This document shows positions 7,926 through 55,279 of a DNA stretch of 64,000 bases, in pieces. A program made the translations under genes and the position numbers. Each line of letters opens with the position of its first letter. Positions within the stretch are counted from its first letter, which is position 1. The notes beneath the pieces are model-generated. The model worked only from the letters and a program-made list of their open reading frames with translations. It did not search any database and had not been told where the DNA came from. Source of the stretch: Ginglymostoma cirratum (taxonomy: Eukaryota); contig JAHRHZ010000115.1 in assembly GCA_024137785.1 (NCBI GenBank), positions 2,572,478-2,636,477 of the forward strand, read 5' to 3'.

Positions 7926-7964
7926 AGTTTTTGTACAGGGGAGAGACCATTTATCATCACTGTG
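7926..7964 (-). promoter_or_regulatory. 23-RSS of V2
   Basis: CACAGTG, 23-bp spacer, ACAAAAACT on the minus strand. Confidence 0.97.
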
Positions 7965-8419
7965 CCAGTGAGAGCGCAGTAATACACAGCAGTGTCAGTC
8001 AATTCCAGCCGAGTGATAGTCAAACTGGTAAATTTCTTCCAAGTCTGAAGTTCTGCAGAGAAACGACTTTTAGCGAAATCTGCTTTATCCTCATTGGCAT
8101 TGCTATTTTTCCACAGTATATACTCGGGCTGTGTGTCTGAGTGCCGCCGGTACCAGTATAATACATGGTAGTTCCATGTAGTCTCATAGGTACAGCTTAT
8201 AGTTACCACGTCTCCTTCTGTCCGAACATCTGAGGACAGCGACTGAGTGACAGAATTGCCATGGCTCAGATCTGAAACAGAAAACAGACACCAAATGTAT
8301 TGTGTTAGGCAAGGATAAAATTAAACTACGATTTGATGAAAAAAAAAGTGAAACGCATTTCCTCCACGTCTACCTGTTAGAATTGATGCCCACATAACGC
8401 AAATGTTGAGTAGCTGCAT
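7965..8419 (-). CDS. TRAV/TRDV: TCR alpha/delta V gene V2 (leader 8419-8374, V exon 8271-7965), apparently functional
   Basis: Leader MQLLNICVMWASILT(G) with GT/AG sites. V reads LSHGNSVTQSLSSDVRTEGDVVTISCTYETTWNYHVLYWYRRH...LTDTAVYYCALTG, open frame. Confidence 0.96.
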
Positions 8420-11588: not shown

Positions 11589-12818
11589 GGTGCTGCTGTG
11601 AGATTCAATGCCGCTGTTTGCTACTGCTCTCCTTCTAACTGATTACCTTTCGATATTCGCTGTGTGCAGTTGTAGTTGCTGTGCCTGCATTTTAAGAAAT
11701 CAAATTCTCTATGGTTGCACTTCAATTGGAGTTTAAAGTGATACAATGCCACCGTCTGCTGGTGTTCTGAAGCTTCTACAAATGCCCACAGTGAAAGTTG
11801 CTAGGGAATCAGTCAGAGGGAGAGCAGCAACAGACATCAGCATCCAATCTTACAGCAGCATCAGTACACATGCACACTGTAAGTGTTGGAATTAGAGGTG
11901 CCCAGTGTAAAGATTACAGATGGGGTAAATGTGGGAATTGCAAAGAGGGTGAGTTTGCAAAAACGGACATGGGCATGGACTAGAGATTCACCAAACCAAG
12001 TCCTCTCAGGATTTGTATGTTTCAATTCAACCATATGTGACCCTTGCAATCTCCAGAGAATACAGGCCCAGACGATCTAGCCTTTCCATGTCTATCTCGC
12101 ATTTGAACATATTTATCACCCAGAATCTGAGGCAAATAATTTCACGGACCTTTCCTCCTCTGAGAGAAGAAATGCCTCCTCATTTCTAACTTCAATGAGT
12201 GACTCTTTATTCTGAGATTCTTCATCTGCTCCCAGCTTCTCCAACGGGGAAAATACTTTTTCAGCCTCTGTTCTGTCACATTTTCATTGGAAACCTCTCG
12301 ATCATATGGGAGTTGAGGTGTCCCACCTGACTCAGGTAGGGACGCTACGACAATGTCACAGGCTGCCTCCACGCAGCTTGCTTACACACTGATGAATTAT
12401 TTTGATGTGGATAAACTCAAAGAATGTTTGCTCACATTCATTTCTCTCCAGACCTCCAGCCCAAGAACAAGACAAACTAATTTTGTATTATATTCATGCA
12501 CATTAATCGGAATGGTTAGAAACTTGAGACTCTAAGATAGGGGATGAATGTCCACGAAAAAAATCAAGAAATTAGGCATTTTTTTCCCTGTATTGGGAAG
12601 ACACCTGAAGTACAACATGAAATTCTGACATCATTATGGTCTGTGTCTGTGCACATGCTCACAGCCGGTTGTTGATTTTCTCAGCAGCTCAGGTGACAGT
12701 TTGATATGAGACTAGTGTGGTTTTCTCTCGGTCTGAATTGGAACTCTTGAAAACACATAGTAACATCTGGAGATTCTGTGAAAGCTCCGGTATGTAGATC
12801 AATCTATGATCCAAATGT

Positions 12819-12857: not shown

Positions 12858-13314
12858 AGGTTCTGGAAAGCACAGTAATACATGGCAGTGTCAGTCAGCT
12901 GTAGCCATGAGATCGTCAAACTGGTGAATTTCTTCCACTTCCGAAGTTCTACAGAGAATCGATTTTTAACAAAATTTGCTTTATCACCATAGCCAGCAGT
13001 ACTTTTCCACAGTATATACTCGAACTGCTTGTCTGGGTGCTGTCGGTACCAGTATAATATATAGTTGCTCAATGTAGTATCATAGGTACAGCTTAGAGTA
13101 ACTGCTTCTCCTTCTGTGCCAATGTCTGAGGAGAGTGACTGAGTGACAGAATCTCCACGACACAGGTCTGAAAAGGGAAACAGACATCAATTCAAAATTG
13201 TCGAACTGGTCTCAGTTTAAACCTTGACTTGAAAAAGGAAATACAAAATGGATTTCCTCCTCATTTACCTGCTAGAATTGCTCCCCACATGAACCAAATG
13301 CTGAGTAGCTGCAT
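12858..13314 (-). CDS. TRAV/TRDV: TCR alpha/delta V gene V3 (leader 13314-13269, V exon 13167-12858); open frame but defective RSS
   Basis: Leader MQLLSIWFMWGAILA(G). V reads LCRGDSVTQSLSSDIGTEGEAVTLSCTYDTTLSNYILYWYRQH...LTDTAMYYCAFQN. Confidence 0.94.
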
Positions 13315-14079: not shown

Positions 14080-15823
14080 TGTGTGTGTTTGTGTGTGTGT
14101 GTTGGCGCTGCTTTGCGATTGAATGCTACTGTCTGATAATGCTCCCCATCAGACTGGTTGACTGTCGATTTTCGCTGTTGCAGATGTAGTTGCTTCTGGC
14201 TATGCAAAGAGTGAGATTGTATCACACACGTGTCTGACTCTCGCAAACTCAAAAAGATACAGGCCTAGTTTATGTAGCCATTCCGCGTCTATCTCAAACA
14301 TGAAAATTTTTAGCACCCAAACTCTTTCATAAATAATTCCACTGATATTTTTCCCCTCTGAGAGAAGAAATGCCACCTCATCTCTATTTTAAATATATGA
14401 CTCCATATTCTGAGATTATGCTCCTAGACTCTCCCACAAGATGAAACACCTCTTCCTTATCTACACTGCGAAGTTTTCATGACGCATGTTTAGAGCCTAG
14501 TGGACTTGAAGGTGAGCCTATGATTCAAGGGCAGGTGCACTACCGCAATGACATGCGATCCCTCCATGCAGCTCGCTTTTATGCTGGCATTATTCTGATA
14601 TTGATAAATGCAAAGCATGTTTGCTCACATACATTTCTCTGCACACCTCCAGGGCTGGGAAATCGCAAACTAATTTCGTATTAGGTTAGTGGTGTGCTAA
14701 TAAGAACAGTTCCACTCCTTACAGTCCAGGAGTGGAGATGAATGTCTGATCTGTTAATTGTCACGAACAAATCAATACATTAAAGAACATTTCCAGCATT
14801 ATGAAGACAGCTGATGTACACCCGGCCAGTGAAGAGAATCTAACTTTGAGGCTGTTGTAAAGATCAGCTTCACTCCATTGTGAGATCCATCCCTGATCCA
14901 GAAACTCACACCCTCTTAACAAACTGTAGGTTGTTATTCTGGGAAACTGAAGTGGAAGATGTGGAAGTTTGACAGGCGGGCGAACAAATAGAAACAGAGG
15001 ACAAAAGAAACATCAAAATGACCAGTGAAATTATGAATGTTAGCTGGATATGCGGGTTGAGAGTATCACAGACTGCACACTATGTCTGTGTGTGAGTTGA
15101 TCATGCTGCCAGTTTGAATAGCGCTATGTGCTGCTACCCTCCCTCCAACTGAATCCCTGACTCGTCTGGTCTTCATATTGAGTACTAATGGACATCAGCC
15201 AACAGAGGGCGGAACTGCATCATGTTGAACTGAGGCGGGGGCAACAACGAAAGAGGCTGCGGGATTTTTTGATTAATTTATTTATCATCTGCCCTCCAGT
15301 CGATCGATATAAGAAGGTAACAGCTCGCTCCTCCTGAGCTGATATTAGATCCGTTAGACAACGCTCCAGATGAAGTTTTTTAAACTTTTGAACGTTTTCC
15401 ATCAGACACTGAGGCAGACAGAACAAAGCACAGCAGAACACATCGAAACACAAGCACAAACGCTGCAAACCAAATATGTGCAACAAAACAGTCACACAGG
15501 TACACAGGCACATACACACTAGCACTAACACCTGAATGCAGAGATGGAAGCTTTTGGAGACCCATTGCCTTTTGCTTAGTGTGTATGTGTGTATGTATAA
15601 CAACAACAATTGCACTTCCTGCTCTGGCCTACAAAAAGGGCAGCCACTGTTATTTTGGTCTTGTACTCATATCAAAAGGCCATGAAAATGGAGGTGAGAT
15701 TAACGCTGATTATCCTCAAGCTGAATACAATTGCCTCAGCTGAGATACACCGTCATGTGATCTTTTCACATTTCTGTTTTGAGACAACGTTGTGATACCC
15801 TTTATTATTGAGTGTTGGGAGGT

Positions 15824-20016: not shown

Positions 20017-20394
20017 ATGCACCCTTATCTCCTTTCATCATTTCTCCTGTATGTTCTGATTCCAGGTTACAGTGCTCCTGGCTGGAGATCGGAGCACACA
20101 GTCTCTTCTAGCACTGGTGACTGTTGAAGGCTCCTCAGTGACACTGAACTGCAGCACCAGCACCTTGCTCAGCTTCGTCAAGTGGCACCTGTGGGGTAAC
20201 GGGCAGGAGCCGCAGCTTCTGGTCATGGCCTCAGGCAGCGTGGTCGGAACAGGCAAGATTCATGCCGCTCTTCACCGGGAACAGAATTACAGCATTTTGA
20301 CCATCAAAGACACCGAGATGAACGCTGCTGCCATCTGCCTCTGCCATGTGATCTTCACCGTGATGCAACCAAATCAGCACCCAAAACAGGAACG
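20017..20394 (+). pseudogene. Divergent TCR V pseudogene psiV-b (leader 20017-20065, V exon 20073-20355, 23-RSS 20356-20394)
   Basis: Leader-like MHPYLLSSFLLYVLIP, only 7 nt (GTTACAG) before the V exon. V reads LLAGDRSTQSLLALVTVEGSSVTLNCSTSTLLSFVKWHLW...LTIKDTEMNAAAICLCHVI. RSS CACCGTG, 23 bp, ACAGGAACG. Confidence 0.85.
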
Positions 20395-21851: not shown

Positions 21852-21890
21852 GGTTTTTGTACTGGAATGAGACAGATCCTCATCACCGTG
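21852..21890 (-). promoter_or_regulatory. 23-RSS of V4
   Basis: CACGGTG, 23-bp spacer, ACAAAAACC. Confidence 0.97.
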
Positions 21891-22346
21891 CAGCCACCAA
21901 AACCGCAGTAATACACGGCAGTGTCAGTCAGCTGTAGTCCAGTGATAGTCAAACTCGTCGATTTTTTCGAGGCCTCAAGTTGCATAGAGAAACGATCTTG
22001 CACAAAACTTGCTTTACCATCACTACCACCAGTATCTTGCCACAGAATAAACTCGGGCCGTGCGTCTTGGTGCTGACGGTACCAGTATAATGTGTAATCG
22101 CTCGACGTAGTATCATAGGTGCAGTTTAGAGCCACAGCTTTTCCTTCTTTCTGGACATATGAGGAAGGTGACTGAGTGACAGAATCTCCATGACTCATGT
22201 CTGAAAGGGAAAACAGACATAAATTGTCAAGTGTCAGGCTGTGGTCAGTTTATGCTATGATCTAATAAACAAATGTTAAATGCATCTGCGTCAAGTTTAC
22301 CTGTTAGAATTGTTCCCCACAAAAACCAGATGCTAAGTAGCCGCAT
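21891..22346 (-). CDS. TRAV/TRDV: TCR alpha/delta V gene V4 (leader 22346-22301, V exon 22200-21891), apparently functional and most D-proximal
   Basis: Leader MRLLSIWFLWGTILT(G). V reads MSHGDSVTQSPSSYVQKEGKAVALNCTYDTTSSDYTLYWYRQH...LTDTAVYYCGFGG. Confidence 0.96.
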
Positions 22347-23345: not shown

Positions 23346-23870
23346 AAATCTTCAGTCCGACCACACTGTGTATGGGGGTGTCTCTGAGCGTGCTCGCTCA
23401 TCTTTCTGTGAAATGGAAGATATCTTCGAAAGCCGCGCGACGTTGCTCTTGCCGAAGTGATACAATGCCACCCTCTGCTGGCTGTCTGAAGTTACTGCAA
23501 GCACAATGTGAAAATGGCCTGGGAATCAGTCAGAGAGAGAACAGTAAGGTCAACATACATATAGAGACAAACAGAATCAGTGTGGGTATTAGGGAGGTGG
23601 CCACAGTGAAGATTACAGAGGGGTAAATGTGGAGATTACAAAGAGGGTGAGATGTGGACAGCGTGAGGATTACAGATGTAAGTTCTAATCATGTTCTCTC
23701 AGAATCATATGTTTCAATTCAATTACGTGAGAATTTTGCAACCTCAAGAGGTTACAAGTCTATACAGTCTTTCCATGTCTATCTCAGTCTTGAACATACT
23801 TAGCACACAAGCTCTGTGATAAACAATTCCAGACATTCTTTTCCCTCTGAAAGAAGAGGGTGCCTCTTCA

Positions 23871-26445: not shown

Positions 26446-27589
26446 CAGAGAAGCCAACAGCAGAGATCGATAAATGCAATACGATGACAGTGATACCGGG
26501 AAGCACTAGCAGATGGAGCTTGATACAACGTACAGCAGGGGAGTATAGTAAATCTACTCAAGGACCTTTGGGAGTAGTACTGATAATTTCATTCTTACGT
26601 TGAACCTTCACGCATTTGCACTGTGTAGTACAGATACACACACACACAAACTCTTCAAAACACATACACAGACACACCCTCACACACGCATACACGCACA
26701 CACACACACACACACGCATTCACTCACACACTGAAACACACACACACACACACATACACATTCCCACGCACACACGCATACTCACATGTGATATGATATG
26801 CTCAAAGCAGACAGACACAGCTCAACGTGATCAGACCCAGAGGTGGGTTACAGTTACTGCACTTAAAATTCTGTCAGATTTCTTTCCATCCATGATAAGT
26901 GATCCCCCAGACTCACCATGTCTTTTACTCCCAAGATTCTGCTCTCTGTTTCCTGCCCCGATTCCCTAATTGATACCAATTTTTGCTCTTTCCAGTTCAG
27001 AGGTGCCACGAAAATACCTACACGTTCCCACCCACACGTAATACTTGCACCCACACAAACTGTCCCCTTTCAAATTATAGTCCCACCTTCCACATCACTA
27101 CACTCAATTTCAATCTTATCCAGCAATATCTCTGATATCACCTTTATTCCTGTCCTCTTTTTCTCTACCTTCAGGCTCAAGGTTATCGCCCTCCCCCTCT
27201 GTTAGTTCCTCTCAGCATTCTTCGCTGAGATCAGTCTCATCTTCCTTCTTCCCCTCTGTGGGTGTTTTTCTTTGACTCACTGAACAGAGGCCTCACAGAA
27301 CATGATACACGGCACACCTGAATAATGGTACAATAGCTATCTNNNNNNNNNNNNNNNNNNNNNNNNNNNNNNNNNNNNNNNNNNNNNNNNNNNNNNNNNN
27401 NNNNNNNNNNNNNNNNNNNNNNNNNNNNNNNNNNNNNNNNNNNNNNNNNNNNNNNNNNNNNNNNNNNNNNNNNNNATTTCTGTCCGGGTGTGTTTATTTA
27501 GTCTGTGTGTATACTTGTGTACATTTCTATTTGTGTCTGTGTGTGTATTTCAATGCAAATATGTCTATGTTAGAGGACTCGTGTGCAGC

Positions 27590-28200: not shown

Positions 28201-28570
28201 TGTCTCTATGTCTGTACCTCTGTGTGTGTGCGTGTTTGTCTGTGCACTCCTGTGTAAGAGCTAGTGAATATGTGTCTGTGTGTATGAATGTTCAGTTATG
28301 CATGTTCACTTTGTGGCCTTTGCCTGTGTGTTTCGGGGTGTGTGTCTGTTCTGCTGTGAGTTGCTCTGGTTGTCAGATCCTGGTCGAAAATGTATTCAAA
28401 AGATAAGAATCGTTCATCTGGGAAGCTGTTTCACGGGTCTAGTGTCAGTTCTAAAGCCACGCGTAGCTGCGTTGGGAGATAAATTGTCTTCAGAGATGAC
28501 AGTGACTGAGTCAATCCATTGAAAAGTCTCGCAGTCTCCTTCTCGGCTGCTCTGGTTTGTGTTGGACATG

Positions 28571-28603
28571 ATCTGCCTCTGTTGGCGGATTTCCGATACT
28601 GCA
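28571..28603 (-). promoter_or_regulatory. CTCF-like site, reverse orientation, core degenerate
   Basis: CCAACAGAGGCAG (one G short of consensus) with TGCAGT starting 18 bp upstream. Confidence 0.45.
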
Positions 28604-28971
28604 CAAGAGGAAGGTGAAACTTCCCAGGGATTCAGGGGAGTGCAAACAGCACCATTCAACGTGACAGCAGCATCGACTCGCACACAAAGGCAGTGTGCTG
28701 TGTTTGTTGCCCTAAACTCGCACGTCAAGTGGCCTTCATAAATTCGCTGTTGACATTTCGGTATTTATTTTGTTTTTGGTTTTCCTACTTCCTTACCATT
28801 CTGAGCACCTTCTTCCACAACTCCATGTCTATTTGTCGTATTTACAGTCCACAGTTTGTTAGGAGGTGTATTTGCTTAGAGTAAGCTTCTGGATCAGGGA
28901 TGCTGTGTGCGCATTTGGACCAGTATTGCAGTGTTAATGGGGCTGATCTTTAGCGTCCTGTTGCTCGGCTG

Positions 28972-29004
28972 TGCAGCGGCGTCTATCTACCAGCAGAGGG
29001 TGGC
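28972..29004 (+). promoter_or_regulatory. CTCF-like site, forward orientation
   Basis: CCAGCAGAGGGTGGC core with TGCAG starting 18 bp upstream. Confidence 0.7.
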
Positions 29005-29171
29005 GTTGTAGCTCTTTAAACGCAAGTTGGAGGAACACGGGAGAGAGAAACTTGCTTTGCAATTCATTCATTGTTGCACTGCACCTACCTCCCAATGCCC
29101 GCACGCACAAGCAGACAATTTCACACACTCGCGTGGATACACACACGCAGACACAGAGGGACACTTGGACA

Positions 29172-29329: not shown

Positions 29330-29655
29330 CCAAGTTCCCTCTCACTGAGTCTACATGCTAAGGGATGCACTAAACCTTAGGACAGCTGCCACCAAGGTGC
29401 GGTGGGCAAAGACCATGGCCTGAGGCCTTTTTGCTGAAGGTAAATGGCGATTCTTTCTGTTATCGGACACTCCTGGCGCCTCAAATATACGTAAATATTA
29501 ATTTTGCGTGAGAGGTCTATGTGTTTTTTTGGGGGCGCGATAGAGTCAAAGGTCAAAGTTTTGTTTGCTTGATATGCAACTGTGTCAAACCGAACTGCTT
29601 TTGTGTCAATATATAGTATATAAAGATTTTAATGAATAAAGTATATTTTTTAAAA
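29330..29655 (+). mobile_element. L1/Tx1-clade LINE 3' end fragment
   Basis: Colinear with 10748-11060 (ctacatgctgagggacgca...aataaagtatattt). Confidence 0.8.
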
Positions 29656-38470: not shown

Positions 38471-38557
38471 AGTTTTTGTACTGGTTTGTATCACTGTGGG
38501 ATATATACGAAGCTGGGACACGGTAACATAATCTCCTGCAGCGCCCGTACAATAACT
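38471..38557 (+). CDS. TRDD: TCR delta D segment (coding 38499-38518, GGATATATACGAAGCTGGGA) with 5' 12-RSS and 3' 23-RSS
   Basis: AGTTTTTGT-12-CACTGTG, 20-nt D, CACGGTA-23-ACAATAACT. Open in all three frames (GYIRSW, DIYEAG, IYTKLG). Confidence 0.95.
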
Positions 38558-38839
38558 TCTCCGGCCACAAAGGACCCTCTAAATCCTTTCTAACGACCCT
38601 CTGATTTACCCAGAGCTTTACCGTACACCCTTCCAAATCCCACCACCCATTCTCCCTTTCCATTCTGTGCACTTTTCCCACCTTTGAGCCTGTTTCTATT
38701 GATTTCTGCTCCTGGATTTATGGAAAGACCTGTCCAGTTGTTTTCTCTGGTCTGTACCCACCCCAGAGAAGGGATGAGGCATGGTCCCGAAGAGATAAGG
38801 GGGCAACGAGTAGATTTTGTCCAGGGATTGGACTGTGTG

Positions 38840-38902
38840 CAACATATAGAGATAGCGAGAAACTCCTATTCGGAAATGGGACCAGGCTGATCGTGAGACC
38901 CA
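38840..38902 (+). CDS. TRDJ: J1: TYRDSEKLLFGNGTRLIVRP
   Basis: FGxG motif; AGATTTTGT-12-CTGTGTG (atypical heptamer); GTGAGT donor. Confidence 0.9.
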
Positions 38903-39538
38903 GTGAGTACCAGTTTTTTGCATTAATTATGTTTCTCTCTCTCTCTTTGTGTCTCTGTCCATTTGCACAGAAGCTGCCAAAACTCCTGAATTTCTGTAAC
39001 AATTTCTCTTTTGCGTGTGTGGGTTTATTTCGGGATCTGACTGCCCTCTCTTGGGTATTGTATTTCCTCATTTTCGCTGCTCTCCATTCCCAGAACAGTG
39101 GGTGAGAGGGAGTGATTTACCATATTCCATTGGGAATCCAAACTGGAATAATCCAGACAGCTCTGTAGTTTTCCAAAAATCTCAGTTTTAAGTCCCCCTT
39201 AAAGAGCTGGTAAAGCCATCACTTTCTAAGGGGTTCCAATCAATTCAAGCAATTTTCTTTGCTTGACGCATATATGTGTTTATTTTTTAAGGATCTCGTT
39301 GTAAAATGAAGAAGGAAATTCTCCTCATGCTCTTGGCCAGTCTTGGTATTTCCTAGTGGTGTGAGAACGAGTGAGCGGCCATTGAGAGTGTGGACCTTAG
39401 CAGTTGGTGTCTGACCCAGGCAGACTATAAACTTAGGTGGTGGGTTATGGTGAACTGGGCTAAGAGGTGACTCATGCCAGTTCAGGGTTAATTGGCATCC
39501 ACGCTCTTTGAGTTTTGACGTGGATATTTATCATGGTG

Positions 39539-39591
39539 TACCTACAGACCACTAATATTCGGAGCAGGAACCAAATTGACTGTGGAGCCAA
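39539..39591 (+). CDS. TRDJ: J2: TYRPLIFGAGTKLTVEP
   Basis: AGTTTTGAC-12-CATGGTG; FGxG; GTAAGT donor. Confidence 0.92.
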
Positions 39592-40061
39592 GTAAGTACA
39601 AGCTATTGGTATCTTTTTCACTTGATCTCGTATCCTTTACTGCAACAAGACGACGGTTGGGGGGAGGGGGAAATTATGAATTGGTATTGAGGAGACAGTA
39701 ATGCTGCAGTGAGAAAGAGATCCCAGCAAGTTGTTGGAATAAATTTGAACACAACGCATCTTCTTGCATTTCCAACAATTCTGCTCCATGGTGCGGCTCG
39801 GAGACTCCTTTGCAGCTCTTCAAAGATTTTCTTTTCCTGTCTTTCCCAAAGTACTAGACTCTGGCATTGTAAGCTGGCGGCATGGTAAGTCTAAATCAGA
39901 AATGTTTCAGGCCAGAGGTTTATTCCTGGTCTAATCCCATCAAAATATGTCTTCCTGTCGCTAATTCACCAGTCCTTCCCCGACGCTGTCATTCACTGGT
40001 CCTAATGGAGTTGGAATTCTCGGCAAGTCAACAGGTATATGTCAGGCCAGTTATCATTGTG

Positions 40062-40110
40062 TATGAACCACTGATCTTTGGAGCTGGGACCCAACTGACT
40101 GTGGAGCCAG
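40062..40110 (+). CDS. TRDJ: J3: YEPLIFGAGTQLTVEP
   Basis: GGTATATGT-12-CATTGTG; FGxG; GTAAGT donor. Confidence 0.94.
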
Positions 40111-40361
40111 GTAAGTTGAGATGTTGATGCTTAGCACTTGGGAAAATCCGTGTTTCCGAGCCCGGCAATTCTTTACAAGGGCATGGCATGTTAAATCTCT
40201 GGTGTAAATTGTTGAGCCATGGCAGGGTCTGGTCGAGTAGAGACAGGGAATGGAGATGGATTCCAGGTCACTGAGTGAGACAGCTCCCTTGGTGAAGGGG
40301 GTTGGTGGTGTTTTTTCCATATCAATGGAACAAGGTTCCTGTCTGGGTGGTTGTCACTGTG

Positions 40362-40418
40362 CAGCTTATGATGACAAGCTGATTTTTGGCAGTGGCACTA
40401 AGATGGACGTCGTGCCGA
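40362..40418 (+). CDS. TRDJ: J4: AYDDKLIFGSGTKMDVVP
   Basis: GGTTCCTGT-12-CACTGTG; FGxG; GTAAGT donor. Confidence 0.94.
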
Positions 40419-41019
40419 GTAAGTGCAAACGTTTCTTGTGAGTGAATGTCATTTCTTTCCGTTCTGAGCCTTGGGGAATACACGGATGGGGTGGAGCGGG
40501 GAGTGCAAAAAAGTATGTGACAGAGAAGCCAAGCCACCGTCTCGAGCTAACGAACAGCTGTACTGCACTAATTTCAATTTGGCCTCAGGACCGGACTGGA
40601 GGGAGAGTAGGAGAGAATAAAAGCCGCTTCGGCCCATCAAATCTGCCCCTTCCCCAAAAAAATAGAACATGGGCCAAAGTGAACAAAATTCACCTTTCTT
40701 TCCCACCGACACCTCCCCCATTCCTTTCAAATGCTAACAGAAGACAGAGCGTAAAGTTTTGCAATGAGCTTTGGAGTTTGATAAGTAATTATTCTAGCCC
40801 CCCCTCCCCACCTCTTCCAAAAACCCCTATCTTTTCTGATTCTCCCAAATCAATGGCAGATGAGTCAAAGGAAACTCAGCTACAAGGCAATTTAACCGTG
40901 AAATTGGATGCTAATGCGAATTTATGGACTCTGAAATTAATGCAGAGGAGCGGAAAAGATGGTTTAATGAGGGGTGGGAAACGGTAACAATTATCACCAA
41001 GGATATCCTAATTCAGACC

Positions 41020-41575
41020 TCTGAGTACAGGAGTTTGGACTTTATGTTGAGGTTGTTGAAGATGTTGGTGAGGCCTCTTCTGGAGTACCATGTCCAGTTC
41101 AGAAAAGATTTACCAGGATGCTGCCGGTTAGAGAAGGTTTGAGTTATCAAAAAAGGCTGGATAGGCTGCAACTTTTTTCCACTGGAACGTAGGAGGCTGA
41201 GGGGTGACCTTGTAGAGGTTTATAAAATCATGAAAGGCGTTGGTAAGGTGAACGACAAGGGTATTTTTCCCTGAACGGGGGAGTTCAAAACTGGGGGGCA
41301 CATCTTTTAAGGTGAGAGGAGAAAGATCTAAAAGGACAAGGAAGTTTTGTTTACACAAAGTGTGGTTCATGTTGGAAATGAAATGCCAGAAAAACTGATG
41401 GATGTAGTTACAGTTACAATGCTTAAAAGTCATTTAGATAAGTTCATGAACAGGAAACATTTGGAGGGATATGGGCCAGGAGCAGGCAGGTGGGTCCAGT
41501 TTAGTTTGTGAACATGGGCAGCACAGACTGGTTGGACTGAAGGGTTTGTTTCCGAGCTGTATGGTTTTCTGACTT
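41020..41575 (+). mobile_element. CR1-type LINE 3' fragment
   Basis: LVRPLLEY...; similar fragments at ~42960-43230, 44255-44550 and 45390-45965. Confidence 0.75.
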
Positions 41576-41688
41576 GCAAACTGAATCTGAAGTGTACCCC
41601 GCAGCTAAAGCAAAAGGTGAAATGTAAACCTAGGCATTACTGTACATGTGGTTGGAGTCGTATTTTTGTGCCGTCTGTTAGCACTGTG

Positions 41689-41740
41689 TGGACTACAAAG
41701 ATGATCTTTGGCAGTGGGACCCAACTCACCGTGGAACCCA
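41689..41740 (+). CDS. TRDJ: J5: WTTKMIFGSGTQLTVEP
   Basis: TATTTTTGT-12-CACTGTG; FGxG; GTAAGT donor. Confidence 0.95.
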
Positions 41741-42367
41741 GTAAGTCTGATGCCAATTTCGACCTGAATATTGTCCGGTAAATGTCCTGCTTATTTGACT
41801 GATTTTGTTCTTTCTTTGAGTGGGAGCTGGCACTCAGCAGGGACAAGCAAGTGGGGCCCGAATTAAGTTGGTGCTTGAGCTAACCCGCTGAGGTCCTCCC
41901 TCACTCTCTGCCCTAACCTGTGCTATCTGGGGAAGGTTGTTCCCTTGAATTCCCTCCCCACTCCCTGAATCCAAGGGCCCTGCCTAGGGATCTCTCCTCA
42001 GTCACCAAAGACCATCTCTCCACTAATGCATGGAGGGGCTTGTACTGAAGCAGCATTGCAATTAGAGAGGGAGTTGGGGCCTCTGCAATATTTTTCATTG
42101 CTCAAAGCGTGGGTGCAAGGGATGAATGAAAGTCAGGAGTAATTCCTCTACAATATTGTTTAATTTCACTGAAGGGAGTTCCTGTCCGTCTCCTCAGTAT
42201 ACTTTGGGATGGACAGGATTGCAGATTTTTACCTCCAGATTACCAAATATTCCTTCTGATTTTCACGAAATTATATCATTCTTTGCTGATGTTGAAACAA
42301 GTGGGAAACTGGGAAGTCTCACCCCTGGTCCCCATCGAGGGTTTGTGTCTGAGTAATTGTCACTGTG

Positions 42368-42433
42368 CTGGCTATTATAGCAATGCTGACAAACTCATAT
42401 TTGGCAACGGAACACAACTGAATGTTCTGCCAG
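42368..42433 (+). CDS. TRDJ: J6: GYYSNADKLIFGNGTQLNVLP
   Basis: GGTTTGTGT-12-CACTGTG; FGxG; GTAAGT donor. Confidence 0.95.
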
Positions 42434-43432
42434 GTAAGTGGCTGATGTGTGTCTTCTTTGGCATAGAGAAAGTCGAGGTAGCCTCTGTGCTTCAATAGCG
42501 AAGGCACAGCGCCGATAAGATGATATTTAATAGACTGGGTATCAAGCACAGCTCATGTCTTGCCAAGGCATGTGGTAGTCAGACGTGGAATGCGAATGGA
42601 AAGCTGGGCTGGATGCTAATCACTTGAGTGAAGGAGACTTCATTTTTCATGTTCAAGGGGTTGTTCCTGTCAAGTCCAACAGCTTAGAGGTCACCAAGGT
42701 GGTCTCAAGGCGGAAATGTAGAGCCCCNNNNNNNNNNNNNNNNNNNNNNNNNNNNNNNNNNNNNNNNNNNNNNNNNNNNNNNNNNNNNNNNNNNNNNNNN
42801 NNNNNNNNNNNNNNNNNNNNNNNNNNNNNNNNNNNNNNNNNNNNNNNNNNNNNNNNNNNNNNNNNNNNNNGGAAGGCAAGAGAACAAAAACATGGAGCAA
42901 TTTATTCTCCAATTTGCCTGTTTTTATGCCCAGAACACTGGGTCTAGCAGGGAGGAGGGGGCGGGGGGTCACAGTCAAAAATACAGGGGTAGGCCATTTC
43001 AGACTGAGGTGAGGAGAAATGTCTTCACCCAGATACTGAAGAGGTTGGGGGAGCCTGTAGGATTCTCTGTCGCCACAGAAAGCAGTCGGGCCCGAAAGAT
43101 TGAGTGTTTTCGAGGAGGAGATAGATATTGTTCTGTTGGATCAAAGGGCGTTGGGGTACTGAAATATATGGTCAGACACAATTCCGTTGAGTGGTCGAGC
43201 GTACTCGAGGGTCCGAGTGGCCTACTCTCATCGTCGGTAATTTCAAACTGTTGAACAGCAAAGAAAATTAGTGTAGGAGAGAGAGGGGAAATGGTGCCAT
43301 CTGTTTGGGTATGCAGACAGAAAAGGCTCTTGAAGCCAGAAACATGAAGCTACAGTGAGGGAGACTAAAACAGCTTTTCACTGCACTGTTACTGTGGCTG
43401 GGTCTACTTTTGTAACAGCTGGTAGCACTGTG

Positions 43433-43495
43433 ATGGAATATACTACACTAAGAAGCTGGTGTTTGGAGACGGGACCAAACTCACAGTGGAGCCAA
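43433..43495 (+). CDS. TRDJ: J7: GIYYTKKLVFGDGTKLTVEP
   Basis: TACTTTTGT-12-CACTGTG; FGxG; GTAAGC donor. Confidence 0.95.
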
Positions 43496-44168
43496 GTAAG
43501 CCTCGCAGAGTCTCGCCTTGGGAAACGGTATCAGTATCCCAGAGAGGGTTCACTGGGTTTTGGAACTGTGATAGCGGGAAAATACCTTCTCCAGGGTCCA
43601 GTTGGTCCATGCTGCTGGCTTCAAGCGCCTTTTCTGTCTGCACACCCAAACAAATTTCTCCTCTCTCTCCGACTCTAATTTTCTTTGCCGTTCAACAGTT
43701 TGAAAAGACAGACGATGAGAGTAGGCCATTCGGCCCCTTGAGCTTGGTCCACCGTTCAACGGGATTGTGTCTGATCATCCATTTCAGTCCACCAACACCC
43801 TCTGAGTTGGGGGAGTTGGGACGGGGTGTGTTTGATCTCATTTGAAAACTGCAAGAGCTGTGAAGGGTCAGGCAGAGGATCGATAATGTATCACGTTTGT
43901 TTCTCCATGAGTGTTGGTCTCGGACTGTAGGTTGCAATGGGAAATTAGCGAGATGGAGGGAAGGCTGTACGGCTATTGAGCTCCCATCCCTCCCTGACGC
44001 TTTTGAAATGTCGCAGATCGAAGAGAATTAAGTTTAATGAGGTCCGGGGAGGCAGGGGAAACAATTTGGAGCCTGTCCCGACTGTTCTTTTTGCAATTGG
44101 GATCTTAAGACTCAAACCAAGACAAGTAAATCCTCCCATGACTTGTCCATTTCACTCAGCACATTGGG

Positions 44169-44230
44169 GCAACTACAGAAGCAGGAAAATTCTATCTTCG
44201 GCAGTGAGATCAAACTCACTGTCGAACGCT
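44169..44230 (+). pseudogene. TRDJ: J8 pseudogene: ...IFGSEIKLTVER
   Basis: FGxG changed to FGSE, donor CTAAGT instead of GTAAGT, heptamer degenerate (CATTGGG). Confidence 0.75.
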
Positions 44231-44919
44231 CTAAGTCTCATTGTAGCTTACGGGACACTGAAAGACCTGGATAGAGTGGACAAGCAGAATAGCCTCACGG
44301 TGTAGGGCCGACCCCTCGGAATTGAAATGAGGAGGGATTTCTTCAGCCGATGCTTGGGGGGAGCCTCATTACTGCAGAGGGCTGTGGAGGCCAAGACACT
44401 GAGTATATTTAACACAGAGATAGGTTCTTGATTGGGGAGGGGAATCAGGGCTACGGGGAGAACGGTGTTTAGGGACATGGCAGCTATGATTGAATGATGA
44501 AACAGACTCGACGGGCCGAGAGGCCTCATTCTGCTCCTATCCTTTATGGCCTAAGCCATTCCAGCATCTCAAAACTTGGCTTGTAGACAAGTAATCGACA
44601 GGGCCCTCTTGCCAGTACCCATACAGGGGCAATATAGGTTAAACTCTGCCCTGTAGCTCCAGCCTGCCAAAAATTTGGGAACTTCAACTAGTGCGAACGG
44701 TGCCTCTAGAGACCTACCCCACCACTAGCAACCATCGCTTCCCCCCACCCCCCACCCATTCCAGCCCCCACCCTGCGCCTTAGATTCCTTGGGAAACAGG
44801 GAAATGCCCTGACAACCAGAAGTCAGTACAAGTACGGTCTTTTCTTCAAAATAAAGAACGCCCCTCCATTTCTCGTTCTGTGGTCGAATGCTGTTTCTGC
44901 ATCACCTGGCAACACTGTG

Positions 44920-44979
44920 GCAGCTACGTATATGAAAAGCTGATCTTCGGCAGTGGAACCAGGCTGACGGTGAAACCCA
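44920..44979 (+). CDS. TRDJ: J9: SYVYEKLIFGSGTRLTVKP
   Basis: TGTTTCTGC-12-CACTGTG; FGxG; GTAAGT donor. Confidence 0.95.
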
Positions 44980-46085
44980 GTAAGTCTTTGGGTCTGACTG
45001 TCGTAAAACCCAACAGAGGAGGGGGAATAAAAAGCCCTCAAACCTCGAATCTGACTGACCCTCGATCTGTTCCACACACAGTGGTGGTAGAGGACTGTGG
45101 TTTGGCGGAGGTGGTGACGGTCAGAGAAATACCACCTTGACTGACAGATCGAAATTCCACTCAGCCCCACGTCTCGGCTCTGGGAGAATTTCTCTCACTC
45201 TGAATGCATCGGTTCATTACGTTAGAACTGCGGGGCGGGGGTGGGGGAAAGTAGGTACAGGTGTGGGCTATTCAGAACTCCCCATCCTGACCTGCTCCAT
45301 TATTCATGGCTGACTTATGGCCTAAATCCACGTACCTCCCTTTCATCCATATCCCTTAACAGTCTTTGCTGAATAAAAACGGATCTGTCTCAGATGTCTC
45401 TACAAGTAGACAGGGTGGGTAAGGCAGCTTTTGGCACACTTGCCTTCATTACGCAGTCCTTTGAGTATAGGAGTTGGGACGTTATGTTGACCTTGTACAG
45501 GATGTTGGAGAGGCGTCTTCTGGAAAACTGTGACCAGTTCTGGTCATCCAGTTATAGGGAGGATATTATTAAATTGGAGAGGGTTCAGAAGAGATTTACC
45601 AGAATGTTGCCGGGAATGAAGTGTTTGAGTTAGAAAGAAAGGCTGGGACTTTTATTTTCCCACTGGAGGTTGAAGGGGCAAATTTATAGATGTTTATAAA
45701 ATCATGAGGGGCATAAGGTAAGGTTAATAGCGAAGATCTTTTTCCCTAGGGTGGAGGAGACCAAGACCAGACGGGCTGAGGTTTAAGGTGAGAGGAGAAA
45801 GATTTAAAAAGGGCTTGAGGGGCAACGGTTTGACACAGAGAGTGGTTCGTGTGTGGAATACGCTTCCAGAGGAAGTGGTGGATGCGGGTACAGTTACAAC
45901 GTTTAAAAGGCATTTGAACAAGTACATGAATAGGAAAGGTTTGGAGGGATATGGGCCAAGCCCCGATGATTCTAAGAATTAATCTCTGACATACCAATTC
46001 AGACCCAGGAAGAGACCACGCACAAGGACTTGTGTTCATGTCTGTTGTGGTGAAAGTGAATTTTTTAACACCTGGCACAATCGTG

Positions 46086-46139
46086 CTAACTACTGGAAAT
46101 TAATCTTTGGCACAGGCACCAGACTCACTGTGCAAGCCA
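46086..46139 (+). pseudogene. TRDJ: J10, probably defective: NYWKLIFGTGTRLTVQA
   Basis: Intact FGxG but donor GGAAGT (GT lost) and weak RSS GAATTTTTT-12-AATCGTG. Confidence 0.82.
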
Positions 46140-47185
46140 GGAAGTGGTTGGCAGTTACTACCTCAAATCTAATTAGAAGAATCTCTGGCAGACTGCAATA
46201 GAACCGCCAAATAATCAAGCGCAGTATTTTTTTTTAAATTGAGGGGAATACAGGGAGAATTTAATGGTCAATGCCGATCTGGGGGTTAAAAGTTCTGCAG
46301 AAGGGGTTAATTATCTCTATTTAAGGGCTAAATCAAGGGCTGTGGGGGATGTGCATATCAGAGACCACTGTGAACTATCCCAGGGTAGGGGATTGGCAAT
46401 GGGAAGGCAGTGTTGTATGGTATTCGGACTAGACCTGTCACCCTGAGCCCCAGATTACCTTCCAGGAACATTAGTTCGAGTGCTTGTAGAATTTTACAGG
46501 AGAGACAGGTGCTTGGCTCATCATGTCTGTACTGGCTCCCCAGTTCATCCCCATTCTCCAGCCTTATCTCCATAGCCCTCTAACGTCATCCTTTTCAAAT
46601 ATACATCCAGCTTCCTTTCTAACCCCCCGTCGCTCTTCCAGGCAGCTCATCCCAAACTCCAACAGCTATCTCCGAGTAAATAAGTCTCTCCTCATCTGCC
46701 TCTGAGCTCTATCGCTGACAATCATGGAATTGTGACCCCACATTACCGACTAGTGGAAACAGAATACCGTTCTTTACCCTGTCGAAGACGTTCTCAAATT
46801 TGATCATTTCAATAAAGGTTACCCCTTCGTCTTCTCTGCATCGTGCCCAACCTCCCTCTCTAATCTCTCCTCGTGCCTAAAATCTCTCACGCCTGAAGAA
46901 ATCCTCCATCTCTCCCAAAAATTTGGAATGATTCACACAAAATTCTGGGCTTGTGTTTCTCGCCAAAACTCAGACCCATGTGATCAGTGTCCGTTCTAAT
47001 GGCCTGCTTTACTGAGTGGTCCACTGGGAAAGGACCTGATCTGACTTACATGTGACTCCAGGCCCCAAAGCCCCATTGATAGAGATGGGAAATGAATGTT
47101 CGTGTCAATCCAGCAATGCCTATACCCCATGAACGAACTTGAAAGCTAAGTTTGGAAGGTTTCTGTCTTAGATATGGTTACTGTG

Positions 47186-47251
47186 TGGATTACTATGATA
47201 GCACAACAAAACTCACATTTGGCAGCGGCACCCGACTGACAGTTATACCAG
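47186..47251 (+). CDS. TRDJ: J11: DYYDSTTKLTFGSGTRLTVIP
   Basis: GGTTTCTGT-12-TACTGTG; FGxG; GTAAGT donor. Confidence 0.95.
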
Positions 47252-48609
47252 GTAAGTTAGAGCTGAGGCTTTTTTTTTTTTAAATTTCATTCAGCTAGCA
47301 TGCCGTTTATTTTGTTTTGTTCTGTGGAGCGGAGTGTCTGGGCAGAGAGCCAGATAGTGCTGCAAAGAGAGAGAGAGAGAGAGAGAGTGGCAGAATAAAG
47401 GAACTATCGCAGGCATTTTAGCTGTGAGAGGAATTTTTGGGAAGGTGCATGTTCCAAAAGACCCTGAGGCCAAGAAACGATTCTCCTGGTGTCAGAACGG
47501 TGATGGGCACTGAAGGGTTGAATCACTGTATGGTAAAGATATTAGACTCCATCTTGAAACCGTCCCATCCGAAAAACAGTTCGTTGAGGAGAAGTTGTAC
47601 ACATTTGTCAGTAGTGCTGACAGGTCGTTTTTATTGTGTCGTTTCTGTCTAACATAACCTTGTGAAAAAGGTTCCACTTTAGCTAAAACGAGGGTGGCAA
47701 AGCTTAAATTGGTCACTTTCAAACATGCCTCCAGTTCTCTTTTGAAACCTCCTGTCGAATCCACCTCCATTGCTCTCCCAGGCAGCACATTCCAAATCCT
47801 AACGACTCCCCAAGACTACAGGGCATAGGTTTAAGGTGAGAGGGGAAAGATTTAAAAGGGACCGGAGGAGTAACCATTTCACACACAGGGTGATGCGTGT
47901 ATGTAACATGCTGGTGGAGGCTGGCACAATTACAACATTTAAAAGGCATCTGTAGGGCATGTGAATAGGAAGGGTTTAGAGGGATATGGGCCAAATCTGG
48001 TAAATGGGACTAGATTAATAAAGGATATCTTGTCAGCATGGACAAGTTGGACAGAAGGGTCTGTTTCTATGCTGTATATCTCTATGACTCTGAGTAAAGA
48101 GGTTTCTCCTTATCTCACTCCGAGATCTGTCGTTGACCATCTTGATGTTTGACCCCTAGTTACTGACTGGTGGAAACATAGTGTCATTCTTTACCCTATT
48201 GAAATTGCTCACAAATCTGTTCACCTCAATAAAGGTCACCCCTTAATCTTCTCTGCCCTGAGCCCGATCTCTCTCTCGCTCTCTCTAATCTTCCCTCCTC
48301 TCGGAAATCCCTCAGGCCCAAAGAAATGCTTCATTTCTCAAAGGAATTTGGATTGATTCAAGCAAAATTCAGGCCAGAGTAGCTGGGCCAGACTCAGATC
48401 CTTGTGATCAGTGTCCATTGTAATGGCCTGCTTTACTGAATGGTCCATTGGGAAAGAACCTGGTCTGTCTTGCACGTGAATCCAGACCCGACAGACCCAC
48501 AGCTAGATATGGGCAATAAATGCCTGTGCCATTCCAGTGATGCCCATGCCCTGTGAAGAAATTTGAAAGCCAAGTTTGGAAGGTTTCTGTCTTAAATATG
48601 ATTACCAAG

Positions 48610-48675
48610 TGTGTTACTATGATCGCACAACAAAACTCACACTTGGTAGCGGCTCCCAACTGACAGTTATACCAG
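48610..48675 (+). pseudogene. TRDJ: J12, probably defective: CYYDRTTKLTLGSGSQLTVIP
   Basis: Heptamer position reads TACCAAG; FGxGT changed to LGSGS; donor intact. Confidence 0.85.
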
Positions 48676-50025
48676 GTAAGTTAGAGCTGAGGCTTTTTAA
48701 TTTCATTCTCTTATGTGCAGTTTATTTTGTTTTGTTCTGTGGAATGAAGTGTCTAGGCAGAGAGCCAAGGTAGTACCACAAAGAGAGAGAGAGAGACAGA
48801 GAGAGGGAAAGTTAGAAATGATTGAAGGCATTTTGACCATGAGAGTTACATGTTCAAATCTTTCTTCAAATAAATACACTAAGGCCAGGAAATGAATCTC
48901 CTTTTGTCATAAATGTGCCAGGCACTGAAGGGCTGAATTGTTGTATGGCCAAGATATTAAACTCCATCTTGGAAATGACCCCTCTCAGAAACTGTTGATG
49001 GAAGAGAAATTGTATGGATTTGCCAGTGCTGACAGGTCTTTTCTTATCATATTATTTAAGTCTAACAGGACCGTGTGAGAAAAGTTCCATTTCAGCTAGA
49101 ATGAGGCAGAAAAAACTTAAATTGGTCACTTTCAAATATATGTCCAGCTCTCCTTTGAAAACTCATGTTGAATCCACCTCCCCTATTCCCCTAGGCAGCT
49201 CATTCTAAATCCTAACAAGTTCTCAAAAGTAGAGGGCATAGGTTTAAGTTGAGAGGGGAAAGATCTAAAAGGGACCCCAGGGGCAGCCTTTTCACGCAGA
49301 GTCGGGTGTGTGTATGGAATGAGCTGTGAGAGGAAGTGGTGGAGGCTGGTACAATTACAACATTTAAAAGGCATCTGGATGAGTTTATAAATAGGAAGGG
49401 TTTAGAGTGATATGTGCCAAATGCTGGCAAACGGGGCTATATTTCTTTAAGATATCTGGTTGGCATGGATGAGTTGGACCAAGGAGTCTATTTCCGTCCT
49501 TTAGATCTCTATGACTCTATGACTCTGAGTAAAGAGGTTTCTCCTCATCTCACTCCAAGGTCTGTCGTTGGCCATCTTGAAGTTGTGACCTCTAGTTCCC
49601 AACTGTTGGAAACAAAATATCCTCCTCTACCTTGTCGAAATTGTTCTCAAATTTGATCAACAAATTACAGCAAGGTCACCTCTTAACCTGCTCTCCTCTG
49701 AGCCCTATCTCTCTCTCTAACCCTGCCTTGTGTCTGAAATACCTTATGCCTGAAGAAATCCATCATTTCCCAAAGTTTCCATCAAAACTTGGACTTGAGC
49801 TTCTGGCCAAAATTCAGGCCCAAAACCCAGTGTCCATGGTAATGTCTGCTTTACCAAGCGGTCCCCTGGGAAAGAACCTGGTCTGACCTACATGACTCCA
49901 GACCCCACAGTCCCACAACTAGAGCTGGGCAATGATTACCCATGCCAATCTAGCAATGCCCACGCGCTGTGAATGAACTTGAAAGCTAAGTTTGGAAGGT
50001 TCCCGCCTTAGACCTGTTAACTGTG

Positions 50026-50091
50026 AGGATGACATTGACAAAAGAAGGAAACTCACATTTGGCAGTGGTACCCAACTGACGGTTATACCGA
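50026..50091 (+). CDS. TRDJ: J13: DDIDKRRKLTFGSGTQLTVIP
   Basis: GGTTCCCGC-12-AACTGTG (weak nonamer); FGxG; GTAAGT donor. Confidence 0.9.
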
Positions 50092-52519
50092 GTAAGTTAG
50101 AGCTGAGGCTTTTAAATTTCATTCTGTTCATGTGCTGTTTATTCGGTTTTGTTCTGTGGAATGGAGTATCTGGGCAGCAAGCCAAGGTAGTGCTGTAGAG
50201 TGGGAGAGAGAGAGAGAAACCGTAGAAACGATTGCAGGCATTTTAGCCGTGAGAGTTGCATGTTCAAATCCTGCTTCAATTAAAGACACTGAGGCCAGGA
50301 ATTGAATTTCCTGATGTCAGAAATGTGGCGGGCACTGTAGGGCTGAATTGTTGTATGGCCAAGATATTAAACGCCATCTTGAACCGTCCCCTCTGAAAAA
50401 TTGTCGGTTGAAGAGAAATTGTGTGTGTGTGTGTCTGTCAGTGCCAATAAGTCTTTTTATTGTTGTGTCATTTCAGCCTACCCGAACCGTGCGAGAAAGG
50501 TTCCATTTCAGCTCGAATGAGATGAGGAGGGGAGCTAAACTTGAATTGGTCACTTGCAAATATATAGACAGTTGTCCTTTGAAACCTCCTGTCGAATCCA
50601 CCTCCACTATTCTCCTAGGCAGCTCATTCTGAACCCAAACAGGTCCCCCCAAAACTAGAGAGCATAGGTTTTAGGTGAGAGGGGGAAGACTTAAAAGGAA
50701 TCTGCAGGGCCTTTTTCACCCAAAGGTTGGTACGCATATGGATTAAGTGGTGAAGTCTGGTAAAATTACTACATTTAAAAGGCATCTGTGTGGGTTTATG
50801 TATAGGAAGGGTTTAGAAGAATATGGGCCAAATTCTGGCAAGTGTGACAGGATTAAATTAAGATATCTGGCGAGCATGGACTGGTTGGGCTGAAGGGTCT
50901 GTTTCCGTACTGGACATGTCTATGGTTCTGAGTAAAGACCTTTCTCTTCATCTCATTCTGAGTTCTCCCGCTGACAGCTTTGAAATTCAGACCCTGGCCC
51001 AGCTACTGAAGATGAAATGTTTCTCTTGGACCCATTTCGCTGTGACATGACTGAGCCAGACAGGTTTCACGTCACATACAGCGAGGAGGGTGATCAAGAA
51101 AATCAACTGTCACCAACACACCATCCACAATTTGGCGCGTTCTTTCCTTCTTGATTGAAACTGGGGTATCTCAAAGGCATTAGACTTCCTCCAGGGAGAG
51201 AGGGCGGTCACATTATCCGTGAGCTGACTGTGCTGAGGAAATTCTGTCTCGTGTGGGTTTTTTTTTTAAATCTCGTGACATCTGGTCTCACTGTAACAGT
51301 CGGGAAATGAGTAATGCTGGCTCTCAGACGACTGTGAGACCCAAAGAGCCTTTCCAACGCTGTCGTTTCATTCTGAGACCTGTCTGAAAGAAACATTTTA
51401 ACGTGGCGTGCCCTGGCACATGTGGGAAAAGAAATGTAACCGTGGCTTGAGTTTGCAGGGTGGAAGTAGGGAGGATGTTGGGAGGGCGGTGGGGTTTAGT
51501 TCAGCCACTTAAAAAACGTGGGACTCAAAAATTCTGCAAGCTGCCCACACTCTATAGAGGGTAGTTACGCTCTTTCTTGGCTGTGTTCGGGGGTTGTGGG
51601 GTTGGTTGGGGAATGGGGGGATAGATACGTCAGTGACTTGTAAATGCAGCAGAAAAATAGACGCACAGAGTTTAACCGCAGCTTCTCTCCACACTGCACT
51701 GGCCGATCGGTTTTGTCCCAGATCTTCTTCCCCAGTCCCAAAACAAGGCCTCAGTCCCTTTCCCCGCAGGAGGGTTCCTACCCTGGGGCCCGTCGCGTTT
51801 GAATCCAGAGCAAAACCTTCAGAACAAAATCAGTCAGTCATTTTAGGTTCGCTCACTGCAGCCGTTTCACATCAGCACGGAGCTGACATTGACTTTGTGA
51901 ACAGGATGCTGGGGGGTGATGTTAGGAAAGAGGGAGTCCCTGTGTATTCTGTCTAACAGATCAGTGAGAGAAAGGTCTCACCGCGACTGGAATGGGGAGG
52001 TGGGTTGGGGGAGATGGTGTGGAAGTAAAACTTAAGTTGGTCACTTTCAAAGACATATCCACTCCCTTTGGTGACCTCCGAATGGGATCCAGCTCCCAAG
52101 CCCGGCTCATTCCAAATCCAAACGACTCTGTCTCTCTCTCTCTCTGAGTAAAGATGTTTCTCCTCATCCCGGGCCATGCTCTCTCGCTGACCACCTCGAA
52201 ATTTTGACCATGTTTCCCCCGCACCCCCACTCACCCACCACCCCCCACCCCACCCTCCCCCCAACCCCGGTTAACTGACGACAAAATGTCTTTCGCCGTC
52301 CCACTTTGGTGTGACAATTCCGAGCCAGACAGGTATTGCATCATGTGATAAGAGAAATTAACTGCCACCAGCCCACTGTCCACTTTCTTGGGGGTCCTCT
52401 TCTTTCTCAATTGAAATCAGAGAAACTCGGACGCATTAGGTTGTCCCCAAGGAGGGGCAACAGTTACGTTTTCAGTGACCCGACTGTATGAGCGTGATCC
52501 CTCTCAAAGGACATTAGAA

Positions 52520-53626: not shown

Positions 53627-53639
53627 GTAAGAAGCACGC

Positions 53640-54390: not shown

Positions 54391-54476
54391 GGGGCAGATA
54401 TGCCCATGTTGGCACCTTGTCCCCCTGAGCTGAGGAACACATTCTCCAGACTGACGTCTCCACCTTCTGTCCACAG

Positions 54477-55274: not shown

Positions 55275-55279
55275 TGTGA

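Follow-up and report, generated by a model that had tools for sequence, protein, structure and literature searches.

A divergent pair of CTCF-like motifs between the V and D segments of a shark TCR alpha/delta locus, a probable transposon relic with one intact end

Introduction

A stretch of the Ginglymostoma cirratum genome in which two divergently oriented CTCF-like motifs lie between V and D segments raises the question of whether cartilaginous fish partition a TCR locus with CTCF. The obvious comparison is with the mouse, where IGCR1 is itself a divergent CTCF pair between V and D and where, at Tcra/Tcrd, INT2 forms a loop with a TEA site convergent to it and sets a limit to RAG tracking (PMC4995090). 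The initial annotation accordingly took the shark pair for an IGCR1-like boundary element insulating D-J from proximal V genes. Searches by title or abstract, with subscription journals mostly outside their coverage, returned no work on CTCF at shark TCR loci and none on Kolobok elements with CTCF or on CTCF in transposon termini. CTCF is also absent from the main text of PMC12227049, whose Table S1 shows TCR V genes of both orientations in great white, epaulette and stingray. The analysis below covers the whole stretch of 64,000 nucleotides (the window), together with flanking sequence and the remainder of the assembly.

Organization of the locus

The locus appears to be TCR alpha/delta, as initially proposed: D, J, C, a Jalpha array and a second C follow in that order. 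V, D and J segments of the window were found by RSS and motif scans. V exons lie on the reverse strand at 1-190, 7964-8257, 12866-13153 (V3, with a decayed RSS) and 21890-22186; the last carries a 23-RSS and is the nearest one that looks intact. All four proximal V exons (window 1-22186) are opposite in strand to D-J-C and would join by inversion. The final V remnant is a leader or promoter-side relic lacking a V exon (26830-27342, reverse). It is followed by a single D segment with 12- and 23-spacer RSS (38499-38518, forward), and no second D was found in 27.4-56 kb even with relaxed RSS rules. Ten FGxG motifs from the motif scan mark the delta-cluster J segments (38830-50100, forward), so that one D accompanies at least ten delta J segments in 38499-50100; the J RSS at 41688 has nonamer-like sequence at 12 as well as 23 spacing. 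A C1-set exon and a transmembrane exon (53302-55330, forward) are read as Cdelta because a D lies upstream and a Jalpha array and second C lie downstream. In window coordinates continued to the right, the long J array occupies 72-144 kb and the second C exon stands at 147.5 kb. Within the J duplication units of this array, a reverse CTCF-like motif of score 13.7 without an upstream module occurs in four copies (93872, 107823, 111764 and 129519, window coordinates continued; L023-L027).

The 170 kb directly to the left of the window read N, and V genes were therefore examined on scaffold C116 and at 1.2-1.4 Mb of C115. C116 holds the V families of the window on both strands, plus IgH-like V genes. 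Its end (C116:756159-756789, L040) is 91% identical to window 3-634, the first V, which suggests that C116 may continue the V array to the left. A dozen IgH-like V exons sit among TCR V genes, on both strands, at C116 586-722 kb (L035-L037, L121-L131), and many have a decayed end of the repeat family described below 1.2-2 kb upstream. In the window, decayed plus-strand V-like exons occur at 5248-5517 (V-set E 5e-4) and 20087-20344 (E 9e-3, with a 23-RSS at 20356), both below the curated cut-off; each V unit is a head-to-head pair flanking a transposon-like element.

The motif pair and the inverted block

A two-part CTCF site consists of an upstream module and a core joined by a 5-6 bp linker, and its footprint is described as module, spacer and core for fingers 9-11, 8 and 3-7, respectively (PMC12885311). 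This binding mode is conserved to lamprey (PMC5504073), and shark CTCF has 11 fingers (PMC7471279). The pair was correctly placed between V and D, in the interval from the V relic to the D segment, and both of its motifs are CTCF-like, with upstream modules at 28595-28603 (reverse) and 28972-28981 (forward) and TGCAG at canonical spacing. The D-facing motif (28972-29005, forward) is intact, with a TGCAG module, a free spacer and a core, and a 6-bp linker in the scheme of PMC12885311; 36 of 40 footprint letters equal the family consensus, as do 3 of 8 in the spacer. It scores 18.6 at 28987 on the CTCF matrix used here, for which p=1e-4 corresponds to 7.6 and p=1e-5 to 12.2. At the V-facing end (28567-28603, reverse) the upstream module is intact. 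Its core was described as one G short; alignment with four paralogues reveals instead a 7-column deletion through which the core has lost its 3' portion, and the site scores 7.7 on the same matrix versus 12.6-21.2 in three paralogues. The V-facing end is thus likely non-binding or weak, judging by its motif, and its loss of about 7 bp leaves an IGCR1-type pair unsupported.

The block around the V-facing motif is inverted relative to the V cluster. The region 28290-28740 is, as reported, a reverse-complement paralogue of 3750-4200 (63.7%, score 237 vs a shuffled maximum of 45) and of 15050-15560 (62.5%, 224 vs 48). The block extends beyond these limits, spanning 28253-28952 with 63-64% identity to its counterpart in the V duplication units; additional paralogues lie on C116. 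The companion claim, that 28960-29060 copies a module at 1400-1550, 11730-11870 and 23450-23550, stands over 33-49 columns only (scores 43-50, shuffled maxima 31-34). Sites without a V gene, at 69565 and 163441 in window coordinates continued beyond the window, match equally or better (54 and 52), and the right-hand match overall covers 33-55 columns. The upstream flank of the D-facing end matches 0 of 11 other ends (z<=2.0), the reference being the cB730 end, with z of 4.8-13.8 against 6 of 7 other V-side B ends. Its outer flank rises above all shuffles for 1 of 11 ends, chiefly via CA-rich sequence. In trees of 119-bp ends, FastTree and IQ-TREE alike group the D-facing end with V-side ends, and the whole TCR-side clade plus one C117 end is supported at 87%; the sister of the D-facing end differs between the two programs.

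The pair was rightly described as having no V gene attached, with no V exon in 27.5-30.4 kb by tblastn at E<=1. A V gene belonging to 28987, 60217 or 69565 was likewise sought by tblastn and rejected. A further candidate, 29351-29654 (forward), is 63-71% identical to upstream regions of three VH-like genes on C116 and was considered as the promoter relic of an IgH-like V. It was rejected as a dispersed genome-wide repeat, with 1517 candidates and 39 other scored copies at 74-80%.

A transposon-like element with a CTCF-like motif in each end

The two motifs bound a 449-bp element (28567-29015) that lies inverted relative to its V-unit copies. Within the element, positions 8-392 correspond to the A end of a V-unit copy 1561 bp long (67%) and positions 402-450 to the other end of that copy; since these two parts align to opposite ends, the element is internally deleted, with about 1.1 kb missing. 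Its interior (28604-28952, reverse) is 64-68% identical to the V-unit paralogues. On the D-facing side, the terminal 10 bp and an intact TTAA (29016-29019) occupy 29006-29019 (forward), a terminus of the type listed in PMC6004289 Table 5. Outside the V-facing end, a degenerate target-site duplication (28563-28566, reverse) is off TTAA at 2 of 4 letters. Beyond it, about 310 bp of host flank (28253-28562, reverse) are 62-64% identical to the V-unit flanks. Because the host flank was copied as well, this copy goes back to a segmental duplication with inversion and not to a new transposition event.

The termini point to a particular group of DNA transposons. Kolobok elements have a TTAA target and RR termini (PMC6004289). 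Read from outside, a family end is TTAA followed by AG, and its first 8 letters are the start of the XKol-A1 right TIR (PMC6004289 Table 5). The D-facing end and most family ends start with AG; at the V-facing end the AG has decayed. Exact TTAA stands outside 14 of 47 family ends and at most one mismatch in 41 of 47, ends that are not independent because many are segmental duplicates. As a control, TTAA-type letters occur at 2 of 15 non-family canonical CTCF-like sites (17 were found and two family members dropped). When TCR ends are compared with two groups of ends from GPCR gene arrays elsewhere in the genome, homology runs inward for medians of 49 and 58 bp and for up to 398, reaching 381-383 bp for 60217 and 69565. 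Outward it stops at a median of 6-9 bp, with the outer letters shared and no empty site seen. Terminal inverted repeats measure 44-46 bp in the GPCR-array copies and about 130 bp (63%) in the V-unit copies; two-ended copies are 684-995 and 1354-2514 bp long, respectively.

The element is therefore likely an internally deleted relic of a Kolobok/T2-MITE-like non-autonomous DNA transposon, and the divergent pair is likely its two terminal inverted repeats. With a two-part CTCF-like motif at each end, every element of this kind yields a divergent pair. Taking the sequence evidence as a whole, we consider a transposon origin of the pair probable, with some features on the other side. About 6 letters outside the TTAA (e.g. 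29016-29026) are common to unrelated insertions at both ends and are kept at 0.58 in V-side ends, implying a palindromic target preference, which the transposon reading requires, or a longer true end. Terminal-motif matches fall on scaffolds below 9 Mb in 46 of 52 cases; of the others, 4 lie on large scaffolds and 2 share a scaffold of unseen length, a distribution that does not resemble the free spread of a transposon. Nor was a Kolobok transposase (DDE, THAP, H2CH) with matching ends found: a search with PF20700 gave no match anywhere, controls included, and a THAP search gave 10 hits, none on a scaffold where family ends were found.

Family members in V units, around Cdelta and Calpha, and in GPCR arrays

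The same geometry recurs in ordinary V units. A full-length paralogous element (1416-3929) lies between V1 (reverse) and a decayed V-like exon (forward), and its ends at 1426 (reverse) and 3901 (forward) form a divergent pair. Other V-side ends lie at 11737-11783 (reverse), 15178-15224 (forward) and, upstream of V4, 23456-23502 (reverse). Further family ends stand alone in the constant-region part of the locus: a reverse end 3' of Cdelta (60207-60253) convergent with 28972-29005, a second reverse end between Cdelta and the first Jalpha (69565, L021:5565) and an outward-facing forward end 15 kb 3' of Calpha (163441, L030:9441).

Across the genome, a 23-letter pattern from the D-facing site occurs in at least 17 places on 9 scaffolds and an upstream-plus-core pattern gives at least 26 matches, with 0 in the controls of both. 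Several matches are divergent pairs 650-960 bp apart, and complete two-ended copies of the GPCR-array length form divergent pairs on C151, C239, C241 and C255. Downstream of the family end by 2.2-3.1 kb, 12 of 18 loci have a same-strand ORF of the rhodopsin-type GPCR class, as judged by eye; PF00001 was confirmed on two of the ORFs, and GPCR tblastn matches lie near 6 of 16 further end-bearing loci. These neighbours may be GPR139-like. GPCR-linked ends occur on C101, C102, C109, C110, C134, C151, C201, C202, C220, C239, C241, C255 and C283 (L078-L095, L047-L057).

These copies bear on two other explanations. The first, a dedicated IGCR1-type pair with both sites bound by CTCF and D-J insulated from proximal V genes, could draw on the V-D position, the divergent geometry shared with mouse IGCR1 and the canonically spaced TGCAG of both sites. 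The divergence, however, likely follows from the two ends of one element, and the same geometry occurs inside V units and in unrelated GPCR arrays; with a 7-column deletion in one core besides, we regard such a pair as highly improbable.

The second holds that there was no transposon and that a CTCF module of V promoters was duplicated with V genes and remained after the loss of a D-facing V unit. Many family ends do precede a same-strand V exon by 1.2-1.9 kb, as many mouse Tcra/d sites lie upstream of V promoters (PMC5859386 Table 2), and in stingray and catshark the V genes closest to Cdelta are same-sense (PMC12227049 Table S1). Unexplained under this account are the roughly 380 bp of one-sided homology with GPCR-array ends, the TTAA/AG terminus and the V-less ends, which largely refute it; we rate it very unlikely.

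Assembly and orientation

An inverted block next to gaps calls for a look at the assembly. An artefact of scaffolding at 27.3 kb, once a concern, does not apply: the N run there is no assembly gap, and the one N run in the genome copy is 10 long. The real gaps are 10 N at 30423 and 100 N at 31507. No assembly gap separates the V cluster from the pair, and the relative inversion therefore lies within one contig. What a scaffolding error could still have done is flip the whole left part, V genes and pair together, at the 100-N gap, in which case the V genes would really face D and the pair would sit at the far end. Both gaps do stand between the pair and D, the 170 kb beyond the left edge of the window are N, and among the listed public pieces, which reach 638 bp, none bridges the stretch. 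The stretch is contained in two public runs from a single study, which may come from the source sample. Against a flip, the V cluster runs ungapped to the pair, and a CA-rich repeat stays on one strand across the 10-N gap. Inverted V genes also occur elsewhere: in the epaulette shark a series of TRAV38-like V genes lies opposite in strand to Calpha (PMC12227049 Table S1), and on C116 both strands carry V genes. We consider a flip very improbable.

Is the CTCF-like motif under selection?

The transposon family offers a way to ask whether its ends have been kept for CTCF. The 26 V-side ends (21 in C116 500-757 kb and 5 in the window) have decayed, with scores of -9.3 to 21.2 on the same CTCF matrix. 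Conservation of their core (0.78) does not exceed that of the terminal 10 bp (0.75; p=0.59), and in two A blocks the core is lost entirely. No family end was found in the V genes of C115 1.2-1.4 Mb (200 kb). Since V-side ends decay and the C115 V genes have none, a one-site-per-V function is unlikely.

Some evidence points the other way. Across lineages, the upstream module and the core stay near consensus (0.78 and 0.78) while the spacer varies (0.25), a pattern that selection for CTCF predicts, although transposase binding during active life could give a similar one. In the D-J-C region, our scan found five V-less ends, the fifth being the broken V-facing end; the other four (28987 forward, 60217 reverse, 69565 reverse and 163441 forward) retain both TGCAG and a score of at least 12.2 on this matrix. 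This compares with 1 of 26 V-side ends, the one upstream of V4 (p=0.0008, the broken end being included and the criterion being post hoc). When a consensus end was mutated at 15-25% in simulation, both parts survived in 17-3% of runs, and one intact end is consequently modest evidence.

The D-facing end as a candidate loop anchor

A weaker version of the original proposal survives, in which the single intact D-facing site has INT2-like geometry with the reverse sites before the Jalpha array, as far as motifs can tell. In the mouse, INT1 and INT2 share an orientation toward TEA, which itself points to the V genes (PMC5859386), and a site by Ealpha points away (PMC5859386, PMC7515734). INT1 and INT2 are thus in tandem (PMC5859386) and offer no parallel to a divergent pair. 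On the matrix used here, 28987 faces the convergent reverse sites 60217 and 69565 upstream of Jalpha and is the only forward site with TGCAG and a score of at least 12.2 between 27.4 and 163 kb. The same interval has 13 other matches, 12 of them reverse (7 of these in two duplicated sets), with about 3 expected by chance. The four intact V-less ends are forward at V-D, reverse and reverse at Cdelta-Jalpha and forward 3' of Calpha. This echoes the orientations of INT1-2, TEA and the Ealpha site, a comparison of motifs only and a match of 1 in 16 at best. Just inside the outward-facing end 3' of Calpha lie three tandem reverse copies of a different strong CTCF-like motif (L030:4972, 6060 and 7142; score 18.4), giving a second divergent arrangement.

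Exaptation may have turned the D-facing transposon end into a lone INT2-like anchor. Once bound at this end, CTCF would stop cohesin extrusion and loop to the TEA-like 60217 and 69565, and, by analogy with the mouse, RAG scanning would be confined to D-Jdelta-Cdelta. Besides its orientation and its status as the sole strong forward site, this end is better preserved than V-side ends and keeps the upstream module, which has been tied to insulator activity (PMC12885311). In skate, moreover, TADs follow the CTCF orientation code, with oriented motifs at their boundaries (PMC10115646). On the other hand, four sites would agree in orientation at random about once in 16, one intact end in a decaying family is a modest observation, and good preservation extends to the terminal 10 bp, the TTAA and the outer letters, as in a less decayed fossil. 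A block to scanning would also probably matter less than in the mouse, the proximal V genes being inverted. Exaptation is in our view a tentative reading, more doubtful than not. A broader version, in which one transposon family seeded anchors at V-D (28972-29005), before Jalpha (60217, 69565) and after Calpha (163441), is a motif-based scenario that we think unlikely. If true, the INT2/TEA/EACBE topology of the mouse would have arisen independently in sharks out of pieces of a transposon, and V and GPCR arrays would owe one site per gene to this family.

Implications

We lean, without great confidence, towards the pair being an incidental fossil of a transposon copy, with probably no dedicated V-D insulator and with only the D-facing end predicted to bind CTCF. 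A non-autonomous Kolobok/T2-MITE-like element with a CTCF-like motif in both ends would have inserted between head-to-head V genes and been amplified with the gene units; inversion, internal deletion and loss of the V gene would then have followed, in an order that we infer. One end would have been left broken and the other, 28972-29005, presumably still able to bind CTCF. The retention of module and core over a varying spacer and the post hoc contrast between V-less and V-side ends sit less easily with an incidental relic.

As a fossil the element is ordinary, and it serves as a warning that, in the gene arrays of sharks, a divergent CTCF-like pair can simply reflect the geometry of a transposon. 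Should the intact ends be bound and looping, they would be the first sequence-level candidates for V(D)J loop control in cartilaginous fish. Four sites would then be named, together with a way in which transposons can lead to an architecture that mouse genetics has revealed.

Comparison with known systems

Among transposons, the closest likeness is with Xenopus T2-MITE/XKol (PMC6004289), which shares TTAA outside, an AG terminus, inverted ends and a non-coding interior. The shark family differs in being old and decayed (about 62-75% between copies) and spread mostly by host gene duplications, and in carrying a two-part CTCF-like motif in its ends; no matching transposase was found for it. Repeat families that distribute canonical CTCF motifs are known from lamprey hAT-Tip100 elements and from mammalian retrotransposons (as cited in PMC5504073). 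In lamprey, CTCF binds a two-part motif spread by hAT elements, with binding shown by ChIP-seq (PMC5504073), whereas the shark family is known from sequence only and has the motif in both termini, making each copy a divergent pair.

Among antigen receptor loci, the shark pair resembles IGCR1 in that both are divergent and lie between V and D. The two sites of IGCR1 are functional, in contrast to the broken V-facing site of the shark, where the geometry is repeated in many ordinary units. The likeness to mouse INT1-INT2/TEA lies in a forward site upstream of D converging on reverse sites before Jalpha, and that to Tcra/Tcrd as a whole in an outward-facing site 3' of Calpha. In the mouse, the tandem sites INT1 and INT2 are both bound, have been tested by deletion and delimit a larger loop (PMC5859386, PMC4995090); the shark has one intact forward motif 9.5 kb from D, a likeness of motif and orientation that implies no sequence homology.
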